A stretch of DNA of 64,000 nucleotides from an uncultured Verrucomicrobiae bacterium (GTDB lineage: Bacteria > Verrucomicrobiota > Verrucomicrobiia > Limisphaerales > JAFGQR01): the NCBI GenBank assembly GCA_963788655.1, contig CAWBHS010000023.1, positions 1-64,000 of the forward strand, in the 5' to 3' direction. This document shows positions 1,929 to 37,412 of the stretch, piece by piece (position 1 is the stretch's first letter; each line of letters opens with the position of its first letter). Below the pieces are notes generated by a model, which was given only the letters and a program-made list of their open reading frames with translations, did no database searches and was not told the origin of the DNA. Both the position numbers and the translations under genes were made by a program.

Positions 1929-1954
1929 GTTAATCCTGACCCATTTGAATCCCG

Positions 1955-12300: not shown

Positions 12301-15300
12301 ATCGGCAACGCGCCGGTCGCCGACCTTGTGAGCGTGGCGTTTACGGGCGCCGGCGGGACGGGCAATCCCAGCTTGAGCGCCGCGTTGCCGCTCAGCGCCA
12401 CCCTCGGCACGTTCACGCGCAGCGGCACCCTGACAGTCACTTGGGCCAATCTCCTCAGCCCGTCCACGATCGCGCTCGACACGTCGCCGATCGCCGACAT
12501 GTTCAATTTCAATTCGATCTCGGTCGATGACGCGCTGCAAGGATTGCTGAACCTGCCGAGCGTTTTGGACCAATTGCTCGACAACACCAAGTTCGCCAAA
12601 GAACTCCCCCTCATCGGCAATGGCCTGAAGAACCTGGTGCAGATCGCCGACCGCGTGCGCGGCTGGATCGATCAATTGGCGCCCATCGTGAACGGCGCGC
12701 GCAGCCCGACCTTTTCCTCTGCCGGCAGTCTCGAAACCCGGCTCGAACAAATCCTCAATAGCGCCGGCGCGCCCTTCGACATCACCGTAACCGTCAGTGG
12801 CTCGGACGTGCAGTTTGCGGTTCTGTTCAAGCAAACCATCGTCAATCAGAACCTGAACTACGCGATCAACGAAGGCGTGCAGGGGCTTGGCTTCCAATCG
12901 ACCGGCACGCTCAAGGTCAACGGTTCCGTCGAGGCCAAGGTCCGCTTCGGGCTGGCGTTTGGCGCTGGCGTGCCATTGGATCAACGATTCTACATCGTAC
13001 CCGGCGCGGACAGTTCAGTGGCGTTGAAGTTCAAGATCGCCGCCAATGTCATGGCCTCTGGCAGCTTCGGCCTGATCACCATCAATGGGAATGGCACCGC
13101 CCGCGTCGGCAGCGGCGCCAGTCAGGCCAACGATGCTTCCTTGAGCATCGCGCTCGTGGATCCCAACACCACCGCCAACACCGCCAACAAGATTGTCCTG
13201 GCCGAAATTCTGAACAGCCCGCTGGCCATCCTCGGTTCGCTCACCCCGACCGGCAGCGCGTATATCAACCTCTCGATCTCCTCGCCGAATGTCATGCCCG
13301 CGCCCAATCCGCTGCCTGGCGTCACCGTCGAGTGGGCCAGCATTGGCAACCTGACCAATCCCACCGTCACCACTTCCGGCGACCTCAGCGCCTTCATCAG
13401 CGCCGCCGCCAATTTTAATTTGAGCAACGTGCTCGCGGGCATCCAGTCCGTCCTCAACATGATCAGCGCCTGGACCGGATTGCCGATCATGCAGACCAAG
13501 ATTCCCCTGGTCAATCGGAGTTTGGCTGACATTTTCGATTTCGTCAGTGAAGCGGTGAAGTTTTTCAACGAGGTTTCGCACACCAACGCCGCCACCGCCA
13601 GCGCGTTCGATACTGCGGTGCAGGCGGCGTTAACGGCCGCGGGGTTGCCGGCGGGTTCGACGTTCGAGCTGATTCCATCGTCCGATCCGACCTACCACAA
13701 TCCAGGCGACCTCTCGAATCCGCGCGTCCTCTATCTGTTCCATTACCGCCACAACTTTGCCGCCAACACGGTGGATTTCGACTGGGGCAACGATCTCTTC
13801 TCGCTCAGCCTGTCATTCACGCCAGCCATCACGTTTGACCTGCAAATTGAATTTGGGTTCAGCAAGGAAAAGGGCTTCTACATCGTGGACCGCGATACCG
13901 CGCCGGCCGGTGAAGTCATTCGTTCGGACTTGCGCATGGGCATCGGCGAAGTCCATCTCGGCGCGGGTTTGACGGCCTCCAATTTCAATGCCGGCGGCCA
14001 ATTTGGCCCGGTGATTTACGGTGTGGCCGGCGGCAACGCCAGTGCGAATTTCGGCCTCACGCTCAATCTCAACGATCCGAATAGCTCCGGCGGCATCATC
14101 ACCACCAGCGAGTTGACCGGTAACATCACCACCGTCCTGCAACCTTCCGTCGGCGGCACCGCCTCGATCGTTTTGCCGATGGGCGTGCGCATTGGCAGCG
14201 ACGGTCCGGGCGTCAAGACCACCTTTAGCGCATACTGGAATGCCAACTCCCCGACGACGTTCCATTTCGGTTCGCCGAGTGGTTCGACCGATCCGGCGGA
14301 CGGCTTCTCCGGCATTCAATTCGAACTGGGTGAATTCCTACGCAAGCTGATCGGGCCATTCATCGAGAAGATCAACGAGTTCAATCCGCTGCCGCCCGAA
14401 ATTATCCGCGTCATCAACACCAAGTTGCCGCTGATCGACAAGACACCCGCCGAATTGTTGGGTGACCTAACCGGCCAACCGGAAATCAAGCTACTCTTTC
14501 AAATCCTCCAAGTCGTCACCGACCTGAATACCGTCATCAACTCCGGCAAGGATCTCGACCTCTCTGGTTACATCGCCGGCGAATCCGCCCCGTCCAATCC
14601 CGGTTCCGGCAGCGCCACCGGCGGCGACACCTCCGGCGGCAGCACGGGCTTTCTCAGTGCGCTGGATGACTTCGGCATTCGCATCTTTGGCGACCTGCCC
14701 TCGAAACTGTTCACCAGCTCGACGCCGATCCCCGGCGCGATCATTCGCCTGTTGCTCAAAGATCAAAACGTCGAGTTCGTGGCCTGGAAACCCGCGCAGT
14801 TCCACGTCGGTTTCGAATTCAATTCCCCGCCCATCCCGCTGTTCAGCTTCGGCATTCCGTTCATTGCCGAAGCCCGCGTCGAGGCGCAGATCGGCGGCAG
14901 CATTGGATTCTTTGCCAACTTGGAAATCGGCTTTACCTCGCGCGGCTTGTTCTTTGATCCCGATGGCGCGGGTCCGAAAAAGCCCAGCATCCTCAACGGC
15001 TTCTATTTCGGCGATAACATCGTCAACGGCGAAGACCAGTTCGAAGTCGGCTTCACCGCGGAAGTTCACCTCGATATTTCCGGGGTCGCCAAAATCCTCG
15101 GTGTCGATGCCGTGCGGGTGTATGGCCGGGGTGGCGTTCGCGGAACCATCGGCCTGGACATGGCCGACGTGCGCTATGACTCAATGGACCCGACGTTGCA
15201 AATCGGCGTCATCCAGCGCCGCGACACGCCCCAGGGCGACAACAAAGTTTATCTCGATGAAATTGGTTGGATCGTCAACAACTACGGCCTCACTTGCGCG

Positions 15301-18300
15301 CTCTCGTTGGGCGGCACGCTCGAAGCTTTCCTCGGCGTCGGCGCCAAGGCGCTCTGTTTGTTCGGCGGTTGCCTGGTCGATGTCTATGACGAAGCCACGG
15401 TCACCATTGCGAACTTCGACATTCCTTGCATGCCCAACACCACCAACCTGGCGGATGTCTCGGGCAATTCGCTCGTCATGTTCGACGACAACGCGCCTGA
15501 TAGCATCGGCGACCATGACATTGTGGTGACTGTCCGCGTGGACCGTGACGGCAATCCGCTTGGCCTCCGCATCCAAAAGCATCAGAAAGAAACCGACGTT
15601 GAGCGCATCATCTCCTCGTTGAACGCCACCAATGACATTTATGGCCGGGGTGTGAGTCTTGGCGACAAAGCGCTTTACAATGGTGACGTTTATACGTTTT
15701 TCGGACCGTTCGGTGGTTGGATCAAAGGTGGCGATGCGGCCGACACCATCACCATTGGCGACAAGAATGAATTCGAGGAATTTACCGCCGCCGAACTGGC
15801 TGGGGTCGATACCTTGGTAATCAAAGGCACCCAGGGCAACGACAAGATCAGCATCGATCCCACCGTCAGTGAGGTGCTCGGCATTCAGCACATCACCATC
15901 GACAGCCGTGGCGGCAACGATCAGATCGACTTCGGCACGCTCGACCCGGCCACTTCCAATTTGCAGGACACCAACATCACGACTGGCGACGGCGATGACC
16001 GCATTGTCGGCACGTTCGCCCGTGACGTAATCCATGCCGGAGCCGGTAATGACACTGTCAGCGGCGAGGGCGGCAACGACGACTTGTATGGTGAGGATGG
16101 CGACGATACGCTTTCCGGCGGGGCGGGTGATGATTACATAGATGGCGGCCTGGGGGCGGACACAATTTACGGCCAGGGCGGCATCAACACCATTCATGGC
16201 CGCGCCGGCAACGACACCATCGTGGGTGGCGACGACCGCGACGTGATCTATGGCGAGGAAGACATTGACAACATCACCGGCCAGGCGGGTAACGACGAAG
16301 CCCACGGTGGCAGCGCTGATGATACCGTGTTCGGCGGCACGGGCGACGATAGCCTCTTCGGCGACGCCGGTAACGACATTCTGAATGGTGAGGACGGCAA
16401 TGACTTCATCGATGGTGGTTCGGGCATGGACGAAATCAAAGGTGAGGCCGGCATCGACACGCTCAATGGTGGTTCCGAAGACGACACGATTTACGGTGGC
16501 AGCGAGGACGACACCATCAACGGCAACGATGGCAACGACGTGCTCTACGGCGGCCCCGGCAATGACACCATTTCGGGCGGCAACAACGATGACCGCGTCT
16601 ATGGCGAAGACGGCAACGACATCATCCACGGCGACGATGGCCAGGACGAATTGCACGGCGGGAACGGCAACGATTCCATCTACGGCGGCAACCAGAACGA
16701 CACAATCTTCGGTGAGGGCAACGACGATTATATTGAAGGCAACGCCGGCACCGACACCATCACCGGCGGCGCGGGCGACGACTTTCTGATTGGCGGCGGT
16801 TCCACGGTGGGCTCCGATGCGGGCGCCGGCGACACCATCAACGGCGAGAGCGGGAATGACATCATCATTGGCGACGACGGCGCCAAGGGCTCGATCATTC
16901 TCCTGGGTGGCACCGGCAACGACATCCTGTCCGGCGGCAGTGGTGACGACCAGATCTTCGGTGAAGGCGGCAATGACACCATTACCGGCGACGCCGGAAA
17001 CGATCTTATTCACGGCAATGACGGCAATGACACCATCAACGGCAACGATAATGAGGACGATCTCTATGGCGATGCCGGCCAGGACACCATTCACGGTGAC
17101 AATGGCCTCGATCGCATCTGGGGCGGTGACGACGTGGACACCATTACCGGCGACGCGGGCAACGACGTTATCCGGGGCGACAATGGCAACGACATCATCC
17201 AGGGCAACGCCGGCGATGATGTGATCTATGGCGGAGCCGGCGACGATAACATCGAAGGCAACGCCGGCCTGGATCGCATCTATGGTGGCGACGGCAATGA
17301 CACCATTTATGGTTACGCCCTGGTCACCGCTGGGGATGATAACACGGCCGACACGATTTTCGGCGAGAACGGCAATGACATCATCCACGGCAACGGCGGC
17401 GACGACTCGCTGGATGGCGGCGCGGGCGTGGACATGATTTATGGTGAGGACGGCAACGATCTCGTTATGGCGGGCACGGGCGTGGGCGACCAATTATTTG
17501 GCGGCAATAATGACGACCACCTGATCGGCTCCGACGAAGGCGCCGACACCGACCCGAATTTCAATGACGCGACCTATTTCGGCGACGTGATCGATGGTGG
17601 CGCTGGTAACGATTGGATCGAAGGCCTCGGCGGCGCTGACAACCTCCAAGGCGGCGAAGGTGACGACGCGATCGATAGTGGCGTGGGTGCCGACCTCGTC
17701 CACGGTGGCAATGGCAATGACGATATTTTTGCTGGCCACGGTTTGGGCGACACAATCTTCGGCGACGACGGCGATGACGTTATCTACGGGGCCCACGAAG
17801 GCAACGACGCCATCAATGGCGGCAACGGCAACGACCGCATTTATGGCCAGGGCGGCACCGACGTTCTCCACGGCAACGAGGACGATGATTATGTCGATGG
17901 CGGCGGCGGTACCGACCAGGTGTTCGGGGACAATGGCAACGACGAACTCGTGGGCGGCGGTGGCGCCGGTGACGTTCTCGACGGCGGCAACGGCGACGAC
18001 CTGATTCACGGCTCCGACGACGGCGCTGACAACATCACCGGCGGCGCTGGCAACGACCGTATCCTGGGCAACGGCGGCAACGACACGATCAGCGGCGGTC
18101 CGGGTGACGACATCATTGACGGCGGCGCCGGCGACGACACTATTTCCGGTGATGAGGGCAGCGATCTGATCCTGGGCGGCGCCGATCACGATACGCTCTT
18201 TGGGCAAAACGCCAGCGGCACCGGTGAAGACAACGCGGTCGATTACCTTTACGGCGACTTCGGCACCAATGCCAATCCGGCCGAAACCGGTTCGGGTCGT

Positions 18301-21300
18301 GATAGGCTTTTTGGTGGTGGTGGCAATGACCTCATTTACGGGGAGGGCGAAGACGATTTCATCGACGGTGGTTCCGGCGGGAGCAACCTGATCAACTACG
18401 GCTCGGGCGAAAGCGCTACCCCTTCGGATTACGTTGCGCCCACGGCCACACCCGCTCCGGCCATCCAGCCAACTACTGGCATCAGCCACGCCCCCTCCAC
18501 TTTGACCAACCGCACGAATGAACGCGGTCGTTGGACGGAATTCTCCAGTTCGGCCAGCGACGGCGGATTGAGCGATACGGACAGTCTCGCGCTTGAACCC
18601 AGCATTGCCACCGACAGTCTCGGCAATCGTTACATCGCCTGGGTGGATGGCCGGAATGGGAATTACGAAATCTATGTGGCCGTGCTGTCCAGCGCGGGTG
18701 TCTGGTCGCAACTGGCCGGCAGCGCGCAAGACGGCGGGGTCAGCAACACGCTGACTTCCTCCCGCCGTCCCAGCATTGCTGTGGGCGCGGACAACCATCC
18801 GGTGGTCGCCTGGACCGAGTTTGGTGCGGGCGCCACTTCGAGCAACATCCGCGTCGCCAAATACGATCCGACCGCCAATGGCGGCGCCGGCGGTTGGGTG
18901 GCGTTGGGCTCGTCGCTCACTGCCAATGGCGTCAGCAGCAGCGGTCTCGCCGACAACGCTTCATTGGTCATCGCCGCGGCAGGGCCGACCGTCGGTTGGC
19001 TCGACAACTCCAGTGGCACCACGCACGTTCGCGTTCGCCAGTTCAGCGGCGGCAATTGGAACGAGTTGGGTGCTGGCAGCGCCACCGGTTTCGGCATCTC
19101 CGGTTCCGCGGCCAGCGTTCGTGATCTGGTGCTGACCACCGACGGCGCGACGAAAATGGCCGCGGCCTGGACCCAACCGGTGGGCGGCAGCAGTCAGATC
19201 TACGTTAAGGAATCGACCGCCGGCGGTGCGTTCACCCAGATTGGCAACTCGGCCACGGGCGGCGGCGCAAGCAATACACTTGGTGCCAGCAGCGCTCCCA
19301 CAATGGCCTATCGCAGCGGTGCTTTGTTTGTAGCCTGGCAGGACGAAACCAATGTCTTCTCAGAAATCTACGCGGTGCAATACAGCAGCGGCACCCGCAC
19401 GGTCATCAGCACTTCCGGCGGCGGTGTTTCCAATACCAACGGTTCTGCCACGCAACCCAGCCTGGCATCCAATGGTTCCAATCTTTACCTGGCCTGGGCG
19501 GACGATACCGCCAACAGCCGCGTCGGCACGAAGATCGCGATTTATGTCCGCAAGTGGAGCGGAGCATCTTTCGTTGAGGAACTGACCGGCGACGCTGCCT
19601 ATTACGGGATCAGTTACACCGGCGGCATGTTGCGTTCGCTCGACCTCGCACTCGACAATGCTGGCAAGCCGTTCGTGGCTTGGAACGATCAGACTGCCGG
19701 CAGTCCGCAGATTTATGTTCGCGGCAACACGTTCACGCTGACGAACATTTTCACCGCCAGCGGCGCAACCAGTGTGCAGTCGATTTTGGATGCTCTCGAT
19801 CTCAATCCGGGTGATGTCATTCTGGTGACGAGTAACACCGGCGGCTTCACCGTTGGCGGGAATGACGCGGGGGTGCTCATTCACATCCTGCCCACGCCGA
19901 ACTTTTCCAGCGCGGTCAGCATCACGGTGGACAACGTGACGATCCAGGGCGGCAACTTCACGTCCACGATCACCGCCACCAACGCCAACGGCTTCACGTT
20001 GCGCGATGCCGCCGTTTCCGACGGCGTTACCGTGAGTGGCGGTTCTAATGCGCAACTCCTACACAACCTCTTGTACGGCGCCACCGCCGTGACGCTCACT
20101 GGCGGCGCGACAAGTTCGGTCATTGAGCACAACAACATTCACGGCAGCACGACCGGTTTGGCGATCACGGCTGGCGGTGCCACGGGTGTGGTGGTGTTCG
20201 ATAACAAGTTGACGGCCGCGAACCGCCCTGGTCATCTCGGCGGCGTCCAGCGGTACGATTGAAGAAAACGTTCTCTCTGCTACCGACACCGGTTTGAACA
20301 TTGCCGCGGTGTTCACTGGCCTGGTCCGCGCCAACGAAATCATGGGCGCGAACGTCGGCGTGGCCTACAGCGCCGCGGCGACCCTAAGCGCCAACCGCAT
20401 TCACGACAACGTAACGGGCGTTGTTTCCACGGTAGGTGGGAACGTCAACGGTCTGGGCTTCGTAGGTATGGCTGATCCGAATGATATTTACGCCAACACG
20501 ACCGGAGTCTTGCTCACCGGCCAGATGCAAAACCAGCACGTCTTCGACAACACGACTGGCGTCAGCGGTTCGGGCATCCTGGGCGGGACCGACGCGGCCT
20601 TGGCCAACTTGATCGAAAACAACGCCACCGGCGTTGGCAGCTTCACCGGCACCATTCAATTCAGCCGCATCGCCCGCAACGACGTTGGCATCGCGGCCAC
20701 CAATGGGCTGATCATCATTCACAACCAGGTCTATAAAAACACGTCCATTGGCATCGCGGTGAACGCCGACACCGATGTGCGGATCGTCAGTAACACGATC
20801 TATTCGCCGCTCGGCGACAGCATCCGAATCGACGGCAGTTCCAGCAACATCGAGGTGCGGAGCAACATCGTTTGGTCCGAAACCGGTTACGGTATTTACG
20901 TCGATAACAACAGCCAAACTGGGTTCTTCAGTGATTACAATGACCTGCACGCCACGGGCACTGGCCGCGTGGCTTACTGGACGAAAGACTTCTCCGACAT
21001 CCTCGACTTCCAGGCCGACGTGGCGGCGTTCGATCTGCACTCGATTGGCCGCACCGCAGTGCATCCGCAATGGTCCGAACCGCAGTTCTACAATCGGGCG
21101 TTTGATGACTTCCGGACGTTCGACCTGGTGGCCGGGCTACGCTTCTCAAGTCCGACTGTCGATAACGCCGATCCGCTGACAGACTTGGGCGTGCCGCCGT
21201 TCGAGACGAACTTGCTGGTCAATCCAGGCTTCGAGTCCGGCCTGAATAACTGGACCGCCAACCTGAATGCCGGCACCAAGAGTTCAAGCCCGGCGCCGTT

Positions 21301-24300
21301 TGCGGGGAGCAGTTATTTTTACGCGGGCAACATCCAACAGGGCTTTGCGGAACAAACGGTGAACCTGCTCAGCGCCGGTTTCACCACGACGCAATTGGAT
21401 TCGCAGGATTTGGTGCTGGTGTTTGGCGGACGCGTTCAGTCGCTCAGTGAGACCACGCTCGACCAGGGCCAGATCACAGTGGTCTTCCTCGACGGGACGG
21501 GCACGGAGATTGGCGTTGGCGGCCTCGGCACCGCGGCCAATGTGACCGATCGTTGGGAACTGATCGGCGGGCGTCTGCACCTGCCGGTGGGCACGCGCAG
21601 CATCAAGTATCGTTTCGAAGCGACCCTGAAGACCGGCAGCACCAACGACAGTTTCCTGGACGGTGCTTTTGCCTACGTGCTGAACGACACGGTCGCGCCA
21701 AACCAGGGTGCTTACGGAAATACGGTCGCTGAAAATCCCGAAACTGCCCGGGCTCATCTTTACGTTCGGTTCCCCGATCTCTACACCGATTGGGAACGCG
21801 ACAAGCCGCGCCAGATTCGTTGGGAATCCTACAACAACCTCACCGAACAAAACGTCCGCATCGACCTCTATCGGGACGATCCAGTGCATGGCCCGGCCTT
21901 CCTGCTGACGATTGCCGCTTCGACGGCCGATGACGGCGAGTTCAACTGGATTCCCTCAACCAGCGGCATCGCCTTTGCCACTTACGGATTGCGAATTGTG
22001 GTTTCCTTCGTGAACGACAATTCGGTGATCGACCGCAGTGTGGAATCCTTCACCGTGCCGGAAAACGGCGACAACTATTGGGTGGACGACCGTAGCAACA
22101 CCAATGACGAATACACCCCCGCGGCCATCGGCTCGAACCGCAACACCGGCAAACTGGCCACGGCGCCCAAACCGAATCCGGTCAACGTCCTGCGAATTTA
22201 CGAGCTGACCAGCGGTGCCACGTTGAACATTGACACTGGTCTGTATCCCCTCATCTACACCGTCATTGCCACGGCGAAGGCCGACGTGGGCCTGGGATTG
22301 GATCGCGGCTTCACGATGCGCGGCCCGACTGATCCGGCGCGCGTCGCGGAATTTGTCACCGCCATTCCCGGCAATGCCAACCAGGATTTGATTTACCTTG
22401 ATGACGCCGATTTGATGCAGATCCGTTTCCTGACGCTGACCGGCGGGCGTCATGGACTCTACGCCACGGATGCCACGAACAATCTGACCGCCGAACGGCT
22501 CACGGTTCGTGACAATGCCGGCACCGGACTGTTGCTCGACGGCAACAGCGACTTCATCCTGCTGAAGGACATCACCGCGGACAATCACGCCGGCAACGCG
22601 GACGGCGTGGGCATCGTGGGCGGCGCCGGTGGTACGATTGAGAATCTGACCAGCAGCAACAGCCGTTATGGACTGTTCGTGTCCGCCGCGAACCTCACGT
22701 TGAACGGCGCTACCATTTACAACAACCGCGCCGCCGGCATCCGTCAGGAAAGCAACACCACCGGCACCTGGACCGACCTCGAAGTGTTTGGCAACGGCTC
22801 GGGAATCGAGTTACAGGGCAACCTCACCATTGCCAATTCGTCGGTTCACGACAACGTGGGCAACGGCATCGATGGGATCAACAGCAGCAGTATCTTGACC
22901 CTGCAAGACTCGGCGGTGTTTGGCAACGACAACGGCGTGCTCATCCGCCGCGGCCAGATCACCGGCAGCCGCATTTATGGGAACGTGCGATCGGGCGTCT
23001 ATGCGCCGTATTATCCGGTGACGCTCACCGGGAATACGATCTACTCCAACAATTACGGCGTTTACAGCGAGGCCTACGTTTCCGGCACGTTCACCATCGC
23101 GAACAACCTGATTTACGACGACCGCCAGGCGGCGATTCGTTTCTCCAGCTATGGACCAAGCGCCTACGAGGTGGTGAACAATACGATCTTCGAGGCGCTG
23201 GCCGACGGCTTGTATGCCACCACGTCGGACAACATCCATCTGCGGAACAACATTATCTGGGTGCAGACCGGGTATGGGTTGCGCATCGGCAACGAAAGTC
23301 AGAACGATTTCACCAGCGACTACAACCTGCTCTATGCCACCGGCACCGGGAAGGTCGGTTATTGGCAGGGCGACCGGGCAACGTTGACCGCCTGGCAATT
23401 TGCCAATTTCCGCGACGGCAACAGTCTCAGCTCCGATCCGTTGTTTGTGAATGCCACCGGAGCGGACGGCATCCTGGGCGCGCCGAACTTGCAAGGCCTG
23501 ACGGCGACCTTCTACATCGGCAACACCCTGGCGGCGTTGGCCGGCGTTCCGGCGGTGACGCGCACGGATCGGCAGGTGAATTTCGAAGGCTACGGCGTAC
23601 CCGATAACGCGCTGCCGAATGACAACTGGGCCGGCCGTTGGACCGGTTGGTTGAAGGCCGACGTGGCGGGCAGTTACACGATTTACATCGATTCCCAGGG
23701 ACCGCAACGGTTGTCCATCGACGGCAGTGTGGTGATCGACGATGCGGTCGGAGCGAGTGAACAAAGCTACACGTTCAACGTGGCCGCGCCGGGATTGATC
23801 CCTATCACTTATGAGATGGTGGACAACAGCAGCTTTGCCCGGGCGCGGCTGCAGTGGGCGACGCCACAGACCGGCGGCACGCGCGAACTGATTCAACCGG
23901 GCAATCTGCTCACCAGCACCAGCTCGACCAACGGTGCCGACGATAATTTCCATCTGCAATCGCTCTACGGCAGCTTCAAGCCCGGCAGCGGTTATTCCAA
24001 CGACGCGGCCAGCAGTCCGGCAATTGATCGCGGGCGCCCGGGCGATTCGTTTGCCAACGAACCATTGGCCAACGGGGGATATATCAACCTGGGCGCCTAC
24101 GGCAACACGGCCACCGCCTCGAAGAGTCCGGCGCAATACATCCTGGTCACCAACCCGAACGGCGGTGATCGGTTGCCGCAGAAGACCAGCTACGAAATCC
24201 GCTGGCGGTCGGACGGGTTCACCGGCAACGTGCGCCTCGAGTATTCCACCAGCGGTGCCGGCGGATCGTTCCAAGACCTGGCGGCCAACGAGCCTAACGA

Positions 24301-27300
24301 CGGCAGCTTTACCTGGACGATCAGCCAGGCCACCTACCCGGTGTCCGATCAATACGTGATTCGCATCAGTTCGGTAGGCGCACCGGCGATCACCGACCAG
24401 ACCGATGCGGTGTTCAGCGTCATCCCGCCGATTTCCAATTACTATGTGAACGACAACTCGACGTTGGGCGACGTGTACACGACAGCGGTGGGCGATGACG
24501 CCAACGACGGATTGACGCCCGCTACGCCCAAGGCCAGCATTCGCGCGATTCTGGAAACCTACGACTTGGAGTACACGGACACCATTTTCGTCGATACCGG
24601 CTATTACTTCCTCACTGAAAACATCCTCATCACCAACCCGGATTCCGGCGTGATCATCCGGGGTCCCGACGGCGTGGTGCCGCTGAGCACGTTCTACAGC
24701 GACCGCGTGCTGGAGGATAATCCGCTGGCGTATTTCCGATTCGGCGAACCCAACGGCACGACCGCCACCGATGCCTCGGGCAACGGGTTGGACGGCACCT
24801 ACGTCAACGGCGTCACGCTGGGTATCGCGGGCGCCCTGCCGAATTCGACGGACACGGCGGCGCAGTTTGATGGCGTGGATGACTACGTGGATTTGCCCGA
24901 TGGATTTGCCGACTTCACCAACGGGCTGACGCTGGAGATTTGGATCTATCCCACCCAGGCCGATACCTATTCACGCCTGTTTGACTTCGGCAACGGTCAG
25001 AACAGCGACAACATCATCCTGGCCCGCCGGAGCACGACCAATGACCTGACGTTGCAGGTCTGGAACAACACCACGGCGGGGGCCATGTTGACGGCTTCCG
25101 GCGTGCTCGAGTTCAACAAATGGCAGCACTTTGTGGCCACGATTGACAACACTGGCGCCGCGCAGATTTTCAAGAACGGCCTGCTGGTTGCTTCGGGCAA
25201 CGTCACCGCGCCGCGCAACGTGACGCGCACCAGCAATTATATCGCCCGGAGCAACTGGACCACGCCGGATGAATACTACACCGGCAGTTTCGATGAGGCG
25301 GCGATTTATGATCATGTTCTCACCGCGCAACGAATAGCCACGCATTATTACAGCGCGACCGGGCAAAGTGCCGTGTTGGACCGCGCCAATAGCAACAGCG
25401 GCAAATACGTGTTCGAACTCGACAATGCGGACGCGGTCACGCTGTCGAATCTTTCCATCACCGGCGGCTACGACGGCATCAACATCAATCACGGCTCGAT
25501 CCTCTTCACGCTCGAAAACTCGACCGTCTATAACAATGCCAATGCCGGTCTGAACATCCAGGATGCCGCGTCCGCCAATCCCACCATTCGCGACAGCGTG
25601 TTCTACGGCGATTTGAGCGCGGGCGCCAGTGGCGATCAGAATTATGGGGTCTATTCAAAAGGTCAGGATCCCACGGTATTGCGCAACCAGGCCTATCACC
25701 TGAACGGCCGCAGCAGTTACGGCATTTATCTCGATAACGCCGGCACCAACGTCGTGGCGCGCGACAACTTGCTCTTCAACAACTCGACGACCGGCCTGAC
25801 GATCATTGCCCAAAGTTTCGAGTCTTCCGGCAATGTGGCCTATAATAACGACCGCGGCTTCTATTACGAAGACACTACGGGGTCGCAGGTGGCGACGGTG
25901 CATGACGATCTGGCCTTCGGCAACGGCACCGGTTTCGAACTCCGTGGTGCGGGCGAATACTACGATCTGAATGCCCACGACAACGGCACCGGCTTCTACG
26001 CGCCGAATGCCGCGCTGACGGGTATCGTCCACGACATCACCAGTTGGGCCAATACGACCGGCATCAGTTGGAACAGTGGCACGCTTCAAAATGCGCGCGT
26101 CTTCGGCAACACCGGCACCGGCTTGGTTCTCAACTACGGTGCTTGGACTGTCACCGGTGTGACGGCCTACAACAACGCGACCGGCATCCACTCGCAGGGC
26201 TATCACAGCAATAACACCCTGGCGAACAACCTCGTCTATGACAACCGCGACCGCGGCATCTGGCTCGACGACGCGCAATCGAGCAGCGGCACCCTCTTCT
26301 TCACCAACAACACCGTGATGGAACTGAACGCCGACGCGGTGGAGATCACCGGCAACAGCCAGAATGTGCAGTTGAAGAACAACGTCCTGTGGGCCGGCGG
26401 CGCGGGACATTATGTGGTGCGGGTGGCGGACACCGCCCAGCGCGGATTCAGCAGCGACTACAACCTGTTCCGGTTTACGGACGGCGCCCAATTCGGTTTC
26501 TGGCAAAGCGGCTTTGCGACGTTGGCGGATTGGCGTTACGAACTCGGCTTTGATACCCATTCGGTGGCCACCGATCCGTTGTTTGTCGATCCCGCTGGCG
26601 CCGATGGCATTCGCGGTTACCAGGAGTTTGCCGGCTTGATGTTCGAATATTTCCCGAACGCGACCTTCAACGGCGCCCCAACGGTGACGCTCATTGATCG
26701 CAGTATTTCCTTTGGCAGCTACTTCGGCGCCTTTCGGAATTTCGCGGGCCAGCCCAGCGACAACCAATCCTTCCGGTGGAGCGGCGAGATCTATTTGTCC
26801 ACCGCCGGCAGTTACACGTTCTACATTAATTCCTCCGGTCCACAACGGCTGACGCTGGGTGGCAACCTGTTGATCGACGACTTCAGCAATCCCTCGAACA
26901 CCGAGCAACATGCCACCTACACCGCGGCCACGCCGGGGTGGGTCAGCATCCTGTACGAAGTGGTTGATCCCGCTGGCGGCAGCGGCACGCAGGCTAGTCT
27001 CGATTGGACCACGCCCGATAACCCGGTCCGCCGGACGGTGCGCGCCGAAGAGACCGCCTATGCGGCGGGCGGCGGCGCGGCGCTCGATCATCTGGTGCTC
27101 CGTTACCAGTCCGACACGCCCAGTTACGGATTGGATGACGACTTCCATCTGTCGTCCACTGCGGGCAGTTGGCATGGTGGTATTTTCGCCGCGGACGCGG
27201 TGGATTCCCCGGCCATCGACCTGGGCGACTTGGCATCGCCGTACGCGAACGAGAGCAATCCCAACGGCGGCCGCATCAATCTGGGCTTCGAAGGCAACAC

Positions 27301-30300
27301 GGAACAAGCCTCACGCTCGCGTTCTCCATACTTGCAACTCCTTTCGCCCAATGGCTTCGAGAAGACCCGCATCAACGGTGGCATGATCATTCAATGGCGC
27401 ACGCTGGGCGACTTGCCGTTCGTCGATATTGCCGTGAGCCTGGATGGCGGCGCGCACTTCACCACGATTGCGGCGGGCGAAACCAATGACGGCGACTTCG
27501 CCTGGAATCCAACCACGGCGTCGAACCAGGCGCTGATCCGCATTTCCAGCACGCTCGATCCGTCCATCAGCGACACCTCCGACAACTTCTTCACCATCGG
27601 TGCGGCGGGAACGGTCTATTATGTGAACGACAACGCGCAGGCGGGTGACTTCTACTCGCTGGCCGTCGGCGACAATGCCAACTCCGGCACCACGCCCAGT
27701 GATCCGATGAAATCCGTTAACGCCGTGCTGGGCGCCTACGATCTTGAACCGGGCGACATCATTTATGTGGATACCGGTTACTATCCGCTCTCGACGAATA
27801 TTCGGATCACCGCCGCGGATGCCGGCGTGAGCATTCTTGGCCCGACCACCAGCACCGGCTTGGGCGCGGCGTACGAGTCGGCCGTGCTGGCGGATGCGCC
27901 CCTGGCCTATTACCGGCTGGGCGAAAGCAGCGGCACGATCGCTGCGGATGCTTCCGGGCACGGACTGGATGCCAGCTACGTGAACGGCGTCAGCTTGGGC
28001 GGGCCGGGCGCGCTGAATGGTTCCTCCGACACGGCCGCCCAATTCGATGGCAATGATGATTACGTGGATTTGCCGGATGGCTTTGCTGACTTCACCAACG
28101 GGGTGACTTTGGAAATCTGGATCTATCCGACGGCGAACGCCCAATGGTCGCGTTTGTTCGATCTCGGGAATGGCACGGCCAGTGACAATATTTTGTTGAG
28201 CCGATACACCACCAACAACGACCTCTATCTCCAGATTTACAACGGCGGCAGCGCCGGCGGCAATCTGCGCGCGTCCGGCATCCTCGACTACAACCGCTGG
28301 CAGCACATCGTGGCCACGGTGGATGCGTCCGGCAACGCGCGCATTTACCGGGACGGGGTGCTGTGGACCAGCGGCACGATCAACGCCCCGAACAATGTGA
28401 GCCGCACGAGCAGCTTCATTGGCCGGGGCAACAGTTCCGATCCCTATTTTGCCGGCGGCTTGGACGAGGCGGCGGTTTACAACTACGTGTTGCCAGTGGA
28501 CCGCATCGCGCAACACTACTTTGCTGGTATCGGCCAGGGGGCCGTGTTGGACCGGGCCAACACCTCGAGTGGCGCCTTTGCGTTTGAACTGAACAACGCC
28601 GATAATGTCCGCTTCGATTACCTGGGCATCACTGGCGGCTACGACGGCATCAACGTCAGCAATGGTTCCGCAAACTTCACGCTCCAGCATTCGCGCGTGT
28701 TCAACAACGCCAACAGCGGACTGAACATCCAGGATGCCGCCTCGGCGAACCCGGTGCTAACCGACAACGAGTTCTACGGCGACCTGGCCCTGGGCAGCGG
28801 CAGCGACCAGAATTACGGCGTCTTCTCCCGGGGCCTGGATCCCACGGTGTTGCGCAACCGCGCTTATCATTTGAATGGCTCCACCGGCTACGGCATTGAC
28901 CTGGAAAATGCCGGCACCAACGTGCTGGTCCAGGACAACGTGGTGTTCAACAATTCCAATGCCGGACTGTCCGTTTCAGCGTCGGCCTTTGACATCACCG
29001 GCAACGTGGCCTTTGACAATGGCACGGGTTTCGATTTCAACGACACCACCGCGCCGTTGGTGGGCCAGTCGCACGACAATGTGGCTTACAATAACAGCAC
29101 CGGCTTCCGCCTGGCAGGCTCAGGTGAGTTTTACCACGAAATGGCCCACGACAATGGCGCCGGCTTCCTGGTGAGCAACGGCGCGCTCGATGGAGTGGTC
29201 CACGACATCACGAGTTGGCACAACACCACGGGCATCAATTGGAACAGCGGCACGCTTCGCAACGCGCGCGTCTATGGTAACCTCGGCACCGGCATTTACC
29301 TGGGCTACGGCAATTGGACCGTGACCAACAACGTGGTGTACGACAACTACACCGGGATCCATTCGCAGGGCTATCACAGCAACAACACGCTCGCCAACAA
29401 CCTGGTCTATGACAACCGGGACCGCGGCATCCTGTTGGATGACGTGCAGACCAGCAGCGGCACCTTGTTCGTCACCAACAACACGGTGATGGAACTGGAT
29501 GCCGACGTGATCCAGATCACCGGCAACAGTCAGAACGTCCAACTGCGGAACAACGTCCTCTGGTCCGGTGGCGCCGGCCACTATGTGCTCAACGTGGCCA
29601 ACACCGCCCAACGCAGTTTCAGCAGCGATTACAACCTGCTCTATTTCACCGACGGCGCGAAGCTGGCGTACTGGCAGAACGATTTCAATACGCTGGCCGA
29701 CTGGCGTTACGAATTGGGCTTCGATCTCAATTCGCTGAACACCGATCCGTTGTTCGTCGATCCGGACGGCGCCGACAACGTGCGCGGCTACCAGGATTAC
29801 ACCGGCTTGCAGTTCGAATATTTCGCCAACGGCACCGGCGACTTTGGCGGCACCCCGGCGGTGACGTTGATTGATCGCTCGGTCAATTTCAGCTCCACCA
29901 ACAGCGCCTTCCGGGGCTTGGCCGGCCAGCCATCGGACAATCAAAGCTACCGGTGGACAGGCGAAATCTACTTGCCCGTTGCCGGCACTTACAATTTCTG
30001 GATCACGTCCCAGGGACCGCAACGGCTGACCATCGACGGCACCCCGATCATCGACGACTACAGCTTGTCGGCGAGTACAGGCGTCGAGCAAACCGGCGCC
30101 TACACGGCGGCGGGTGCCGGATGGGTGAGCCTCAGCTACGAAGTGGTCGATCCCGCATCTGGTGGCGCTACGATGGCGCGCCTCGAATGGAGCACGCCCG
30201 ACTTACCGCAACGCCGCGTGATCCGCGCCGTGGAAGCGCTCCCCGGCACGCCGGAGCGGGTCGTGTTGCGCTACAACACTGCGGCCGCCACGACCGGAGT

Positions 30301-33300
30301 GGATGACAATTTCCACCTGCAATCGTCTTACGGCAGTTACCGGCCGGCCACGATGAGCTTTGTGAACGATGCCCTCAGTTCGCCGGCCATTGACGCCGGT
30401 GACCTCACGTCCGCTTACGCGAACGAACTTGCGCCCAACGGTGGCCGCATCAATTTGGGCTACGAAGGCAACACGGCGGAAGCGTCACATTCCTCCGACC
30501 AGATCCTCCAATTGCTCTCCTTCATCGGCGGCGAAAAAGTGCGCCAGGGCGAAGCCTCGTTGATCCGCTGGCGGTCGTCCGGTATTGGCGCCGTGGACCT
30601 GTGGTTCAGTGCTAACAGTGGTGCCACTTGGACTTTGCTGGCTGACGACGAACCGAATGACGGCGTGTTTGCCTGGAATCCGGCGACGTCCACCCTGCAC
30701 GGCCGGTTGCGCATCAGTGCGGGCACCGTGACCGACTTCAATTCGCCGGACGCCGTTTTCGACGTCTCGGAAGCCGACTTCACGGTGGGTGCGGCGGGCA
30801 ATCTTTACTACGTGAATGACGCGCTCACTGCGGGCGATCAATACACCACGGCGATTGGCGACAATGCCAATTCAGGCACCACCCCGGCGGACCCGATGTC
30901 CTCGCTCAACGCCGTCCTCAACGTCTATGACCTGGGAGCGGGCGACGTGATCTATGTGGATACGGGGTATTATCCGCTGCCTACGAACGTTCGTATCACG
31001 GCGTCGGATTCCGGCGTGACGGTGCAAGGCCCAACCACCAATGTGAGCGGCAGCTCGAACTACCCGCAAGTCGTGCTGGACGATGCGCCGGTGTTCTACT
31101 ACCGCCTGGACGAGAGCAGCGGCACGACCGCTGTGGATCTTTCCGGCAACAACAATGCCGGCACGTACGTGAATGGCGTGCAATTGGGCCAGCCCGGCGC
31201 CCTGACCAACAACACGGCCATTGGCCTCGACGGCGTCAACGACTACGTGCTTTTGCCGGACGGCTTCAACAGTTTCGCGAACGGCTTCTCCTTCGAGTTC
31301 TGGGCCTATCCAACCAGCACGGGGAGCTACCAACGGTTCCTCGATCTGGGCGCTGGCCAGGCAGCGAACAACATCATCGTGTATCGCCGTTCGACGACCA
31401 CCGACCTCGCTGTGAACGTGTATAACGGCTCAACCGCCAGCTCCGAAGTGGTCGCCAGCGGCGTGCTGGAATTGAACCGTTGGCAGCATTTCGCGATTAC
31501 CATGGACCCGAGTGGCTTGGCTCGCATTTACAAGGACGGCGTGCTCGTAGCTTCCGGTCAGACCGGCGTGCCGAACGACGTCAACCGCACGAGCAATTTC
31601 GTCGGCCGCAGCAATTGGTCCACCGACGCGAACTATGCGGGCGGCTTGGACGAAGTCGCGCTGTATGATCATGTGCTCAGTGCGGAACGCGTCGCAATCC
31701 ATTATGGCGTGGCCACGGCGCAAGGGGCGCTGCTGGATCGCATCAACGTGGTCACGGGCCGCTATGCGCTCGAGTTGGCCAGTGCGCAGAATGTCACGGT
31801 GCGGAACCTGGGCTTCACCGGCGGCGAATGGGGCTTCGTGGCCAACAATGCCGACGGTCTGCGGCTGTACGATTCCCTGGCCTTTAACAATGCTGCCGGT
31901 GGGTTCTACGTGAACACCGACGTGGCCGATGTGGTGGTGTCAGGCAACGAAGCGTATGGCCGGACGGGCAATTCCAATAAAGACCAGAACATTGGCTTCC
32001 AATTGCGCGGCGACCAGATGGTGATCGTCAACAACCGCGCTTACAAAGTCGGGGCCCAATTGGGTGACGGCATTGACGTGGACAGCGCCGATGACCTGGT
32101 CTTCCACGACAACCTGGCCTACAACAACGTCAATGGCATCAGCATCAGCACCTCGCAAGGCGACGTTTATGCCAACGAGGCGCGCGACAATGACCGCGGC
32201 ATTTACGTGGACGATTCGAATGGCAACGCCCGCACCCAGGTGCATGACAATTTCTCGCACGACAACGACGCCCAGGGATTCTACTTGGACGACAATGTCG
32301 AGGCCTACAACAACACGGCCCAACTCAACGGCGGCGACGGATTCTTCATCAATAACGACAACACGCTGGTCCGCAACAATTACTCCCAACAGAACGCCAC
32401 GGGCATTCACGCCCGTTACGGCCAGGTCATTCAAAACCGCGTGGTCGGCAACACCGGCGCGGGAATTTACACCGATTACACCGGCGTTTTCATCAGCGGC
32501 AACAGCGTGTATGGCAATACCCGCGGGCATCGAGATCACCAATTACACCGGCGCTTCCACCGTGCAAAACAACCTGGTCTATGACAACACCAACTTCGGC
32601 ATATACGTTCACGGTGCCGGCACCAGCGGCAACCTCGGCACGCGCGTGATCAACAACACCGTTCACCACGAAGTGGGCAGCGCCATCCGCTTGGAAAACA
32701 ACGGCAACAACGTGGTGCTCTACAACAACCTCATTTATATCAACGGTGGTTTGGGCCTCGAAGTCATTGGCAACGTCACCGGGTATGACAGCAATTACAA
32801 CGACATCTTCCCGGCTCGCGTCGGCGCCAACGTGGGCAAATACCTCAGCCAGCCCAATTCCGCCACCCTGGCCGATTGGCAGACCGCCTCCGGCAAGGAT
32901 GCGAACAGTCAGTCCGCCGATCCGCTTTTCATCGACATCAATGGCGGCGATAACATTCTGGGCTGGGAGCAGCCGGACCCGCAAAGCCAGTTTGCTGACT
33001 TCGGATCTGGACGACAATTTCCACTTGAAACGCGGTTCGCCCGCCATCGACACCGCGGATGGCGAAGTGGGACCGGCCCAGGATGCCGATGGCAACAATC
33101 GCGTGGATGATTTGGGCACGTTGAACACCGGCAACGGCGTCTTCCGGTTCTACGACTTGGGCGCATTCGAATTCGTCGGGTCCAGTTCCGATGTCACCCC
33201 GCCGGTGGTGACGGCGCTGGTGCCGGTGGGCCTGGTGGACAATGCGGTGCTCGACAGCGGATTTGACCGGTTGATCATCCGGTTCAGCGAGCCGTTGGAT

Positions 33301-34871
33301 GCCGTCAGCGCCCGCAGTTTGTCGCTGTATCATCTGGTCGAAGCGGGTTCCGATGACAGCTTTGACACCGGCGATGACGTGCCGGTGAGCTTGGTGGCTG
33401 CCAATTATACCACCGGCGACATTGAGGTGACGCTGGTGTTTGGCGCGTCGCTTGGCCAGGGACGCTACCGGCTCACGCTGGGCACCACGACCGAGGTGCT
33501 GGTGGACCGCGCCGGCAACGCCTTGGACGGCGATAACAACGGCACGCCAGGCGGGAATTTTGTGCGCCATTTCCGCATCAACCTGGCGCCGTCGGTTCTC
33601 GGTACCACGATCAACGATGGTTCGGTTCAGCGCTCGCGGATCAGCAGCGTGACCGTGCAGTTCAGCGAAAACGTCAGCGCCAGTTTGGCGGCGGGTGACT
33701 TCCTTTTCAGCAATTTGACCACCGCGACGGACATCAACTCGCTCAATATCTCGCTGGCTTACGATCCGGTCCACCAACCGCGCAACGCTCACTTTCCCCG
33801 GATTGCCGGGCCAGAGACTTCCCGGATGGCAATTACCGCCTCACCATCACCGCTGCCAACGTGACGGATGTTGACGGCAAACCGCTAACGGCTGATTACA
33901 CTTATCAATTCTTTGTGCTGACTGGCGATGTCAACGCCGACCGGGTCGTGAATGATCGCGACCTGTACGCAGTCTGGCAGAACCTCCTCAAACCGGCCGC
34001 GGCTCGGGATTTGAATGCCGACCTCGATGGCGACAGCCAGGTGACGCAAACGGATGTCAACGTGGTCAAAGGCAATTACCTGGCCACCCTGGCACCGGTG
34101 ACCATGGCGCCGGTGCCTTTGATGGTGCTAGCAGCAAGTCAGCCTATTGTGGCGGCTCAATCGCTGGATTTGGCCGAGAGCCAAGAGGCGACGACGCATT
34201 CGGCATCAGCACTCGCCCCAACCGAGGCAGCCAATGCAGCGGGACCGTCACTCGCAATGGCGTCAGCATCGGATAGCAATTTGACTACGAACACCGTTGG
34301 GATAGTACCGATCCTCTACCCTGAACCAATCGCGCCGTTCTTTCCAACCTTCGTAGCAGCCGACGTAAGGAGGCTCACTCTTTCGAAACATGAAGACACA
34401 ATCGACTCGTCCCGCTTGCTACCCATTACCGATGCAACGCTTGAATCCCATTCGGTGTTACTGGCCATGAATTTCTCCTCGACTGTTGAGCTTGACCCGC
34501 AGCTTTCGATACTGAAGCGTATTGGCATGAGCGCCGATAGTTCCCAGTCTTGGATAACGATTCTCCCTCCCCGCGAACCGTGTAGCAACGGACGTGAGTC
34601 CGCTCTTTCTGAATTCGAAAAGAGTCAGAGCGGACTCACGTCCGCTGCTACAATGGTTCAGGAGTTCAACGCGCCAATGTTTTTGGGCAATTATCTCCCC
34701 CGCAAACATCGCGGGGGCGAGGGAACAGAAAAGGACGACGTTGGAATCATCGCTAGTCGCCAGCAACTCCGGCCACGTTTGGAACGTATGGGATCGCATG
34801 TTGTTGAAAGTCATCCTGCGACCACCGAAATCCGAGCGGCTGAATCCCCCGTAAAGGAGACGTACCGATGA
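9367..34871 (+). CDS. Giant LEPR-XLL / RTX / beta-helix / LamG / PA14 / dockerin surface protein (~8,500 aa); appears as ORFs 9367-20262, 20294-32584, 32064-33110, 32746-33864 and 33861-34871
   Basis: N-terminal FELEGLEPRILLSAD. Domain patterns continue across +1 shifts at ~20221, ~32521, ~33009, ~33770 and ~33821. Confidence 0.85.
15820..18400 (+). repeat. RTX / hemolysin-type calcium-binding nonapeptide tract within the giant gene
   Basis: Dozens of GGxGxDxL/I-type repeats (e.g. GGAGDDYID, GGNGNDSIY, GDAGNDLIH). Confidence 0.95.
21760..33180 (+). repeat. Four tandem coding supermodules (Ig-like - beta-helix[+LamG] - [PA14] - choice-of-anchor-Q-like end); full units ~3.2 kb
   Basis: Recurring IRW, YYVND..GD.Y..A.GD, DPLFV and DDNFHL...SPAID motifs. 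Units 2 and 3 are highly similar at DNA level (e.g. 26189 vs 29360). Confidence 0.9.
34581..34652. repeat. GTAG-type REP-like palindrome inside the giant gene tail
   Basis: tgtagcaacggacgtgagtccgctct ... agagcggactcacgtccgctgctaca inverted arms; a degenerate related copy lies at ~34352-34421. Confidence 0.85.
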
Positions 34872-35666
34872 ACCACCGTTCCCGGCCATTTCTCATCTTG
34901 CTTGCCTGTCTGCTCGCCAGTTTGGCGTCGTCGAGTTCGGCGCAGGTCGTGGCGGTGACATTGCGCCTGGACACCAACCAAATCCCGGTGGGCGGCAGCA
35001 CGCAGTTGCACGTTGAGGCGCAAATCCTGCCGGCGTACCGCAACGGAGCGTACGGCATCTTTTCCTGGTATGTGGACGTGCTCAACACCAATGGCGCCAT
35101 CGCCAGTGCGAACTACACGGTGATGCAGAAGACGGCTTCGGACAACGACCCGGATTCTTCCTCCATCGGCACGGCGGACGGTGCCAGTCAGCGCGGCATC
35201 TACGACACATTCCTGGACTTGCCCGGCGCCGGCCTTGACGCGCCGGTGGAGTTGATGACTATCCCGATCACCGGCCTCGCGGTCGGCCAAACACGCTTCG
35301 AGGTACAAGCCGGGACGGGGGTGCCGGAATTGAGCGCGGATTTCTTGGTGGCGGTCACCAACGCCCCGGACCCCTTGACCGGCGGCGATTACAGCGCCGC
35401 CAGCGTCGATTTGACCGTGTTGCTAGGTCACGCCCACCGCCCCGCATCTGACGATAACCAGCGCGAAATTACCCGGCGGTTCCGACCAGGTAACTCTCCA
35501 TTACACCGTCCAACCCGGCTACGATTACTATGTAGAATACCGCGACAGCCTAACGCCGGGAGTGCCGTGGCAAACCCTGCCCGGCGGTCCGCACAATTCC
35601 GGCGTGCCCATCGATGTTCCCGGCGTGCCAACTCGCTTCTATCGGGTGCGAGTCGTCGCGCCTTAG
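34868..35666 (+). CDS. Secreted cohesin-like protein with verrucomicrobial C-terminal FYRV domain (one +1 frameshift ~35426)
   Basis: Signal peptide and a ~160-aa all-beta domain (NQIPVGGSTQLHVEA...VELMTIPITGLAVGQTRFEV). The +1 frame gives VTPTAPHLTITS...WQTLPGGPHNSG...TRFYRVRVVAP*. The start overlaps the giant-gene stop (ATGA). Confidence 0.6.
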
Positions 35667-37108: not shown

Positions 37109-37412
37109 ATGTCGCCCGAACAAAACAGGGGTTGCTGAAGAACATTCCCGCCATCACGGAGTTGCTCAAAAGCAAAACGGTCACGAATGGCTGAAGGTGC
37201 ATCCCGCAACCCTGGTGACCGAATGAGTGCGCGACGCCGTGTCCTCCGTGCGCCAGCCAGTGCTCGCCGACGCGGAAAGCCGCCAGGAAACACCGCCGTT
37301 GACTGCCGACGCGATCCTGGCCCGCGCGGCGGAGTTACTCGTGCAAACCACCGCCCCGCACCTGCGCGAAGCCATCAATGCCACCGGGATCATTCTGCAC
37401 ACCGGCCTGGGC
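37109..37412 (+). pseudogene. selA: Truncated selA (L-seryl-tRNA(Sec) selenium transferase) N-terminal remnant
   Basis: LLKNIPAITELL and HLREAINATGIILHTGLG match the SelA N-terminus. It carries two -1 frameshifts and an in-frame TGA at 37224, and is cut off by a repeat. Confidence 0.8.

Follow-up and report, generated by a model that had tools for sequence, protein, structure and literature searches.

A pair of adjacent genes was analysed in contig CAWBHS010000023.1 (assembly GCA_963788655.1) of an uncultured Verrucomicrobiae bacterium, over a stretch of 64,000 nucleotides (nt) referred to here as the window. The upstream gene encodes a giant LEPR-XLL protein, which carries near its C-terminus an immunoglobulin-like (Ig) domain joined to a dockerin. 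The downstream gene, the partner, encodes a signal peptide, a domain with a predicted cohesin fold, and a C-terminal domain of the FYR type. An earlier note on this DNA had proposed the two products as a dockerin-cohesin pair. The features of the locus were as follows.

9367..34871, + strand: gene for the giant LEPR-XLL protein, ~8,500 codons, colinear with intact orthologues
9394..9444, + strand: LEPR-XLL N-terminal motif, profile match to NF012209
15960..18400 (approximate, from the translation), + strand: internal RTX-type GGxGxDxL calcium repeats (PF00353, 28 stretches)
33580..33917, + strand: Ig domain of the Big_5 type, X-module-like, joined straight to the dockerin, interrupted where the frame switches near 33770-33800
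33918..34097, + strand: dockerin with two EF-hand-like loops (Pfam and profile matches, conservation)
34098..34868, + strand: unconserved low-complexity tail after the dockerin, 257 amino acids (aa) here and 6-257 aa across 24 loci
34868..34871, + strand: ATGA start/stop overlap (ATG 34868-34870 over TGA 34869-34871)
34868..34942, + strand: predicted Sec signal peptide of the partner (hydropathy), cleavage before a conserved Q
34943..35425, + strand: divergent cohesin-fold domain (predicted fold; no sequence-family match)
35442..35666, + strand: FYR-type C-terminal domain (tblastn), candidate sorting domain, here out of frame with the cohesin

The dockerin, located 257 aa before the C-terminus of the giant, was recognised by Pfam Dockerin_1 (PF00404) at 33924-34070, with 31.6 and 35.4 bits in two scans against a gathering cut-off of 22.9. 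This family is characterised by two repeats of ~22 residues with calcium-binding loop residues at positions 1, 3, 5, 9, and 12, and the two EF-hand-like loops described in the earlier note were both present. The loop residues N12, D15, D35, D39, and D46 were invariant among 37 sequences, and the profile built for this dockerin subtype matched the dockerin of Clostridium thermocellum CelS with an E value of 2e-9. Helix 1 was conserved (W20 86%, P26 84%, and K25 78%) and the second repeat was less conserved, which suggests a single dockerin binding mode. The Big_5-type Ig running directly into the dockerin formed a dyad that was conserved in 30 aligned copies, with up to four tandem dyads per protein. 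In an intact paralogue, whose dockerin was 77% identical, the Ig matched Big_5 with 32.5 bits, and the model of the Ig-dockerin formed one unit (pLDDT 94.8) composed of the Ig and a dockerin with its two helices at residues 125-135 and 156-167. The top structural match of the Ig part in the VIA search was the Ig of SbsC (Z 12.0), and SbsC/CopC-like Ig domains led the ranking. No cellulosomal X-module was found among the best 50 VIA rows for the Ig-dockerin model, and Foldseek returned antibody-type Ig folds only.

The partner gene overlaps the stop codon of the giant by the ATGA seen in the earlier note. The N-terminus of the partner was basic and hydrophobic and ended in SSA followed by Q, consistent by hydropathy alone with the signal peptide proposed there; this Q1 was at least 90% conserved. 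Intact family members had ~260 residues among the 120 listed of 248 matches. The cohesin-fold domain had no match by sequence in Pfam, NCBIfam, or PDB. Pfam Cohesin (PF00963) did not match the domain or two intact homologues even at an E value of 10, contrary to the expectation of a cohesin profile match, and the partner was absent from the five Pfam cohesin matches in its genome. A similarity of 0.88 to a Cohesin cluster in the Atlas was taken as a lead only. The AlphaFold2 model, calculated from 114 sequences, was an all-β sandwich with a pLDDT of 95.8 and a pTM of 0.90. When the model was compared with 48,161 chains using VIA-align, cohesins occupied ranks 1-13 (Z 13.8-11.0), the best being 2vo8 (Z 13.8, root-mean-square deviation 2.6, 132 residues aligned), and the first non-cohesin was the CLIPPER domain 9ifr (Z 10.8). 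Foldseek placed cohesins at ranks 1-10 (E 1e-5, TM ~0.6) and CLIPPER at rank 11. PDB entries 5k39 and 5m0y, which belong to the type II X-dockerin-cohesin system of Clostridium thermocellum, were among the structure-search matches. The cohesin-type sandwich of the earlier note is thus supported, and the partner is predicted to be a cohesin on the basis of its modelled fold and its whole-domain alignment with solved cohesins, which are nine-stranded jelly-roll β-sandwiches, not of its sequence. Conserved polar and aromatic residues on strands 3 and 6 (S41, Y43, D45, R83, Y87, D88, and T89) are located on the sheet that we take to be the dockerin-binding face of cohesins. True cohesins that are missed by sequence profiles and recovered by AlphaFold have been documented (PMC11557425).

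To describe the pairing, two sets of family loci were pooled into 28 distinct loci scoring above 100 bits, with one 87-bit esterase fusion and two 29-bit fragments dropped. A dockerin gene was found directly upstream of the partner in 24 of the 28 loci, two of which belong to the genome studied here. Among the other four, two were convergent, one had only 122 nt of upstream DNA, and one was in partner-first order, where a LEPR giant follows the partner and the dockerin lies ~10 kb further downstream. The gap between the tandem genes, with start codons chosen heuristically, was -43 to +17 nt in 23 of the 24 loci and exactly -4 nt, the 4-nt overlap, in 14. The bodies of the giants varied (SdrD/P-domain, β-helix, CARDB, FG-GAP, and lipase-like), and the dockerin and partner end was constant. 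On the tree, the convergent order and the partner-first order each required two origins. The cohesin family was present in 23 of 401 order-level genomes, and the identical 23 genomes carried a dockerin of this subtype above 54 bits; 18 more genomes had only weaker dockerins (≤42.7 bits). This co-occurrence is partly circular, as the dockerin model was built from cohesin-adjacent loci, the 54-bit threshold was taken from the gap in the scores, and only 16 candidates were scored per genome; 13 of the 23 genomes contributed to neither the cohesin nor the dockerin model. In the phylum sample, one of 400 other genomes had the cohesin, and the same genome alone had dockerins above 54 bits, namely three copies in a 12,522-aa open reading frame (ORF) directly upstream of the cohesin gene. 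The related genomes are not independent of each other; the matches span 15 genera. A mirror-tree correlation (r 0.70, 26 pairs) was rejected as evidence, since linked genes share their history. The gene pair is real and conserved, in agreement with the pairing whose conservation had been named beforehand as a test that could refute the proposal. It is apparently undescribed: no description of the cohesin family or of the gene pair was found in the literature searched, subscription papers and supplements excepted.

A second pair was observed in the same genome (G000:C22:82139-113940, L014/L015), where the gene after a LEPR-XLL giant of ~10,300 codons, itself in several frame pieces, is an intact cohesin-FYR gene that overlaps it by 4 nt. 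The giants of these two pairs carry the only two dockerins of this subtype in the genome.

The C-terminal domain of the partner, called FYRV in the earlier note, was present in the sequence up to the stop at 35666, but it lay out of frame with the cohesin in this copy. With an iterated profile, 188 ORFs of the genome were found to carry the FYR domain, which in 169 of them lay no more than 25 aa from the stop; the giants had none. One such FYR-ended ORF is located in the window at 56499-58847 on the minus strand. No match in Pfam, NCBIfam, or the PDB sequences provided a family name for the domain, and its nearest Atlas clusters (0.95) were unnamed Verrucomicrobiota proteins. The genome encodes two exosortases and has six PEP-CTERM matches, so FYR is not simply a substitute for an absent system. 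Judged from its distribution, the FYR domain is a candidate for an undescribed verrucomicrobial sorting signal or pathway of ~170 proteins. When the domains of 40 homologues of the partner, chosen from 150 listed, were scanned, 13 ended in PEP-CTERM (8 above cut-off), which replaced FYR in the distant ones. Three of the 40 had Dockerin_1 in the same chain as the cohesin, and several had long Ig, Calx-beta, or cadherin stalks between the cohesin and the FYR end. For PEP-CTERM, a role as a signal in sortase-like sorting to the surface has been proposed (PMC1569441). Among ten PEP-CTERM homologues that were looked up, the one with a named source came from Phycisphaeraceae. In the ten metagenome loci of this branch, four cohesin genes (three distinct) flanked a large gene with a homologous Ig-dockerin (92-145 bits), and one preceded a truncated LEPR-like gene.

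The giant contained RTX calcium repeats, right-handed β-helices, LamG, PA14, Kre9-type Ig, choice-of-anchor Q, and Big_5 domains in addition to the dockerin, and because of these domains it may act as an adhesin or lectin. The Pfam label Toxin_R_bind_N was rejected as evidence for a toxin, as it overlapped the LamG domain. The LEPR-XLL giants of this genome belong to NF012209, with scores of 22.5-28.2 bits against a cut-off of 17. No classical hydrophobic signal peptide was visible in the translation ahead of the LEPR-XLL motif. The earlier note had described the giant as an RTX protein. Calcium repeats of this kind were indeed found, but they were internal, the C-terminus consisting of the dockerin and the tail, and none of 12 HlyD-like matches for type I secretion exceeded the TIGR01843 cut-off in this 86%-complete genome. 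A LapA-type adhesin secreted by the type I secretion system (T1SS) would have C-terminal RTX repeats and such a system, and the giant is not of this type. No secretion gene was linked to the pair, since the flanking genes of the window were not conserved at other loci. A third LEPR-XLL giant was observed at G000:C81:56235-74611, with RTX-like repeats at its end and neither dockerin nor partner.

In this assembly, the giant is not a single ORF. It was found in pieces (9367-20262, 20294-32584, and then further switches), with four frame switches near 20220, 32530, 33010, and 33770-33800, and a fifth switch near 35430 separates the cohesin of the partner from the FYR domain. Intact orthologues of 8,518 and 8,681 aa are encoded in single frames, and the pieces were colinear with them at 68-77% identity for most pieces and 53-60% for the last one. 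The pair could be real in the relatives and the present copy a decaying pseudogene, a rather unlikely reading that concerns this copy and not the mechanism. The aligned giant-gene regions had five frame switches in 19.4 kb versus six in 52.1 kb elsewhere, which favours decay, but at the background rate ~2 would be expected (P ~0.08 for at least five). Furthermore, the breaks compared were frame switches across which high identity continued, and two other LEPR giants in the assembly were likewise in pieces, as errors in the assembly would produce. Such errors are a likelier cause than decay because frame switches also occur elsewhere in the assembly.

Since the giant lacks both an FYR end and a classical signal peptide, it would need a separate means of attachment to the surface. 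We consider it probable that the partner is a single-cohesin surface anchor, which binds the calcium-loaded Ig-dockerin and holds the giant LEPR-XLL protein at the cell surface. The partner would be exported by Sec and sorted through FYR (or PEP-CTERM), and its cohesin would grip the calcium-loaded Ig-dockerin. The giant, for whose export the LEPR-XLL N-terminus is a candidate signal, would then be held through the C-terminal FYR domain of the partner, with its lectin-like and repeat domains reaching outward. The start/stop overlap may couple the translation of the two genes. One anchor could serve further giants of the same genome that carry the dockerin subtype, and tandem Ig-dockerins (up to four) could bind several anchors. 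By analogy with known pairs, binding of the partner to the dockerin is very likely, and it would depend on calcium because cohesin-dockerin pairs behave in this way. Anchoring is less certain than binding, the FYR domain being uncharacterised; it is suggested by the ~170 FYR-ended proteins and by the replacement of FYR with PEP-CTERM in distant homologues. The earlier note had the partner as a scaffold that tethers, caps, or polymerises the giant. Tethering is still the best reading, whereas polymerisation at this locus was rejected, the partner having one cohesin and no dockerin; “anchor-type single cohesin” describes it better than “scaffold”.

Several observations weigh against an anchoring pair. 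The TM-scores with cohesins were moderate (0.5-0.64), and CLIPPER and pilin sandwiches reached Z ~10-10.8. A distant homologue was fused to an esterase with no dockerin nearby, and six of the ten PEP-CTERM-branch loci had no dockerin neighbour in view, one with ample flank (L113), four on short contigs (L108, L109, L114, and L117), and one that was cut off (L111). Five genes with the dockerin subtype were distant from any family gene, though within genomes that carry the family, and this is consistent with a shared anchor, as those genomes carry the partner elsewhere. The other cohesins of the genome that Pfam recognises could bind the dockerin instead, and the third LEPR giant lacks both dockerin and partner. 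PorV of the type IX secretion system had no match in the genome. Finally, both genes are frame-broken in their own assembly; the relatives have intact copies.

Three other explanations of the pair were weighed. The two proteins might bind, with the partner acting as an export adaptor or cap that lends its signal peptide and FYR domain in trans to a complex that is then released or stabilised. The absence of an FYR end from the giant in a genome with ~170 such proteins, the conserved, presumed translational coupling, and an FYR domain that lacks a transmembrane helix and may serve for export alone are all compatible with this, but the PEP-CTERM of the homologues has a transmembrane helix and has been proposed as a surface sorting signal (PMC1569441), and the long stalks between the cohesin and the FYR end fit an anchor that stands off from the surface. 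On balance, an adaptor is unlikely.

It is quite improbable that the genes are a linked DNA cassette that travels along with the 3' end of giant genes as these recombine, in which the dockerin is a stand-alone calcium-binding end module and nothing binds. Linkage alone would yield synteny and correlated distances, and other dockerin subtypes do occur on giants with no obvious adjoining cohesin. A cassette of this kind leaves aside that the neighbour has the cognate fold, as predicted, that across deep branches the genes stay paired even where they are inverted, their order is swapped, or the sorting domain differs, that the overlap is retained despite tails of 6-257 aa, and that no genome of the order sample had a strong dockerin of the subtype without the cohesin. 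The sandwich could also be a cohesin-like lectin or adhesion domain of the CLIPPER or pilin-CnaA type for an outside ligand, the two genes being co-expressed adhesins. This would suit the scores of CLIPPER 9ifr (Z 10.8, Foldseek rank 11) and of pilin domains (Z ~10) and the position of the domain at the tip of long stalk proteins. With thirteen cohesins ranking higher and the one-to-one link with the dockerin subtype left unexplained, we regard it as very improbable.

A surface anchor for the giant can be compared with several known systems. The pair is not a cellulosome, which would consist of a multi-cohesin scaffoldin and many dockerin-bearing enzymes; the partner has a single cohesin and the genome five Dockerin_1 matches (four over the cut-off). 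In the type II system of Clostridium thermocellum, the X-dockerin of the large protein CipA is bound by a small surface-anchored cohesin protein such as SdbA. The present pair has a similar arrangement, with an X-module-like Ig and a dockerin on a large protein and a small cohesin protein, but the C. thermocellum system uses an S-layer homology (SLH) anchor and carries an enzyme scaffold as cargo, and the structural identity is only ~11%. The best structural matches, the non-cellulosomal cohesins of Clostridium perfringens glycoside hydrolases and Archaeoglobus fulgidus (2vo8, 2w1n, and 2xdh), are modules of enzymes or archaeal proteins and have no sequence similarity to the partner.

The statement of the earlier note that no characterised system of this kind was known was too strong, as anchors made of an X-module-dockerin (XMod-Doc) and a cohesin have been characterised in Ruminococcus (PMC4266597). 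In the XMod-dockerin:ScaE cohesin complex of Ruminococcus flavefaciens CttA, an adhesion protein likewise carries an Ig-type module with a C-terminal dockerin, and a single cohesin belongs to a second protein that has a sorting signal at its C-terminus, the ScaE-type cohesin being attached via a sortase motif (PMC4266597). The Ruminococcus pair is part of a cellulosome, is anchored by sortase in a Gram-positive host, and has a measured dissociation constant of ~20 nM and rupture at 600-750 pN (PMC4266597). In contrast, the present host is a diderm of the Planctomycetota-Verrucomicrobiota-Chlamydiota (PVC) group, the cargo is a LEPR-XLL protein of 3,000-12,500 aa, FYR or PEP-CTERM forms the end of the anchor, the Ig module is similar to SbsC/Big_5, and the pairing is predicted. 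A pair has likewise been proposed for the neighbouring genes Cag_2038 (dockerin) and Cag_2037 (cohesin) of Chlorobium chlorochromatii, whose interaction was inferred from modelling and co-expression; here too a Gram-negative genome has an upstream Ig filament with a C-terminal dockerin and a downstream N-terminal cohesin (10.64898/2026.03.19.712371). The roles there are reversed, with the RTX/T1SS cargo carrying the cohesin and the anchor proposed to be the protein with the dockerin; the case is a single species with a cohesin recognised by Pfam/InterPro, and the LEPRxLL giants are separate genes (10.64898/2026.03.19.712371). The “planctosome” of freshwater Phycisphaerae is likewise a non-cellulosomal cohesin-dockerin assembly proposed on a PVC surface, but it is a hypothetical peptidase complex of several enzymes, in which the cohesins are recognised ones, with no giant adhesin and dedicated small anchor (PMC6461901). 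A non-cellulosomal cohesin-dockerin arrangement in Gram-negatives has also been proposed for Cloacimonadota scaffoldins (PMC8542988). For the dockerin-type giants of Omnitrophota, no such partner is described in the accessible portion of the report (10.1101/2023.11.21.568195). In a survey that reports an enrichment of dockerins on huge Planctomycetota proteins, the main text mentions cohesins 0 times (PMC11573180).

Other dockerins and cohesins were noticed in the data. A second dockerin subtype (YYGDxDGDRDVDFxD) follows the same Ig module on other giants (L093-L098 and L100), and in one of these loci it is followed by a different ORF that looks by eye like a cohesin (L094:2808-3410). At L099:2063-3697, another dockerin is followed by a gene that appears by eye to encode a cohesin, an Ig, and an FYR end. 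A protein resembling alkaline phosphatase by eye (G000:C38:217965-221039, L016) has a dockerin, a Pfam cohesin, and an FYR end, and after it comes a small Pfam cohesin whose end is PEP-CTERM-like. In two genomes of one family (G700 and G448), 12 and 6 dockerin-like matches occurred on ORFs of ~500-1,300 aa with no partner-family cohesin match, possibly a separate multi-protein system. Away from the pair, the window contains a frame-broken cassette at 64-3932 (TonB-barrel-like, CHASE2, and kinase), with paralogues on C1, C2, C27, C87, and C88, and at 37227-37412 a short fragment resembling the SelA N-terminus, with which an ORF begins that had no other match.

The analysis names a specific, small, expressible partner (a 160-aa cohesin and a 170-aa Ig-dockerin), so that the attachment of giant PVC proteins can be tested directly. 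A cohesin family that Pfam does not detect is added, and likely a new cohesin-dockerin specificity, with potential for protein assembly and force-resistant linkers. More tentatively, a two-part display may extend across the PVC group, in which anchorless LEPR-XLL giants with Ig-dockerin ends would be captured by a single cohesin that sequence searches do not recognise and that is sorted by PEP-CTERM/exosortase or by an undescribed FYR pathway (~170 substrates per genome), and in which other dockerin subtypes would pair with other hidden cohesin families. If true, such a display would explain the “orphan” dockerins of the giant proteins of PVC bacteria.

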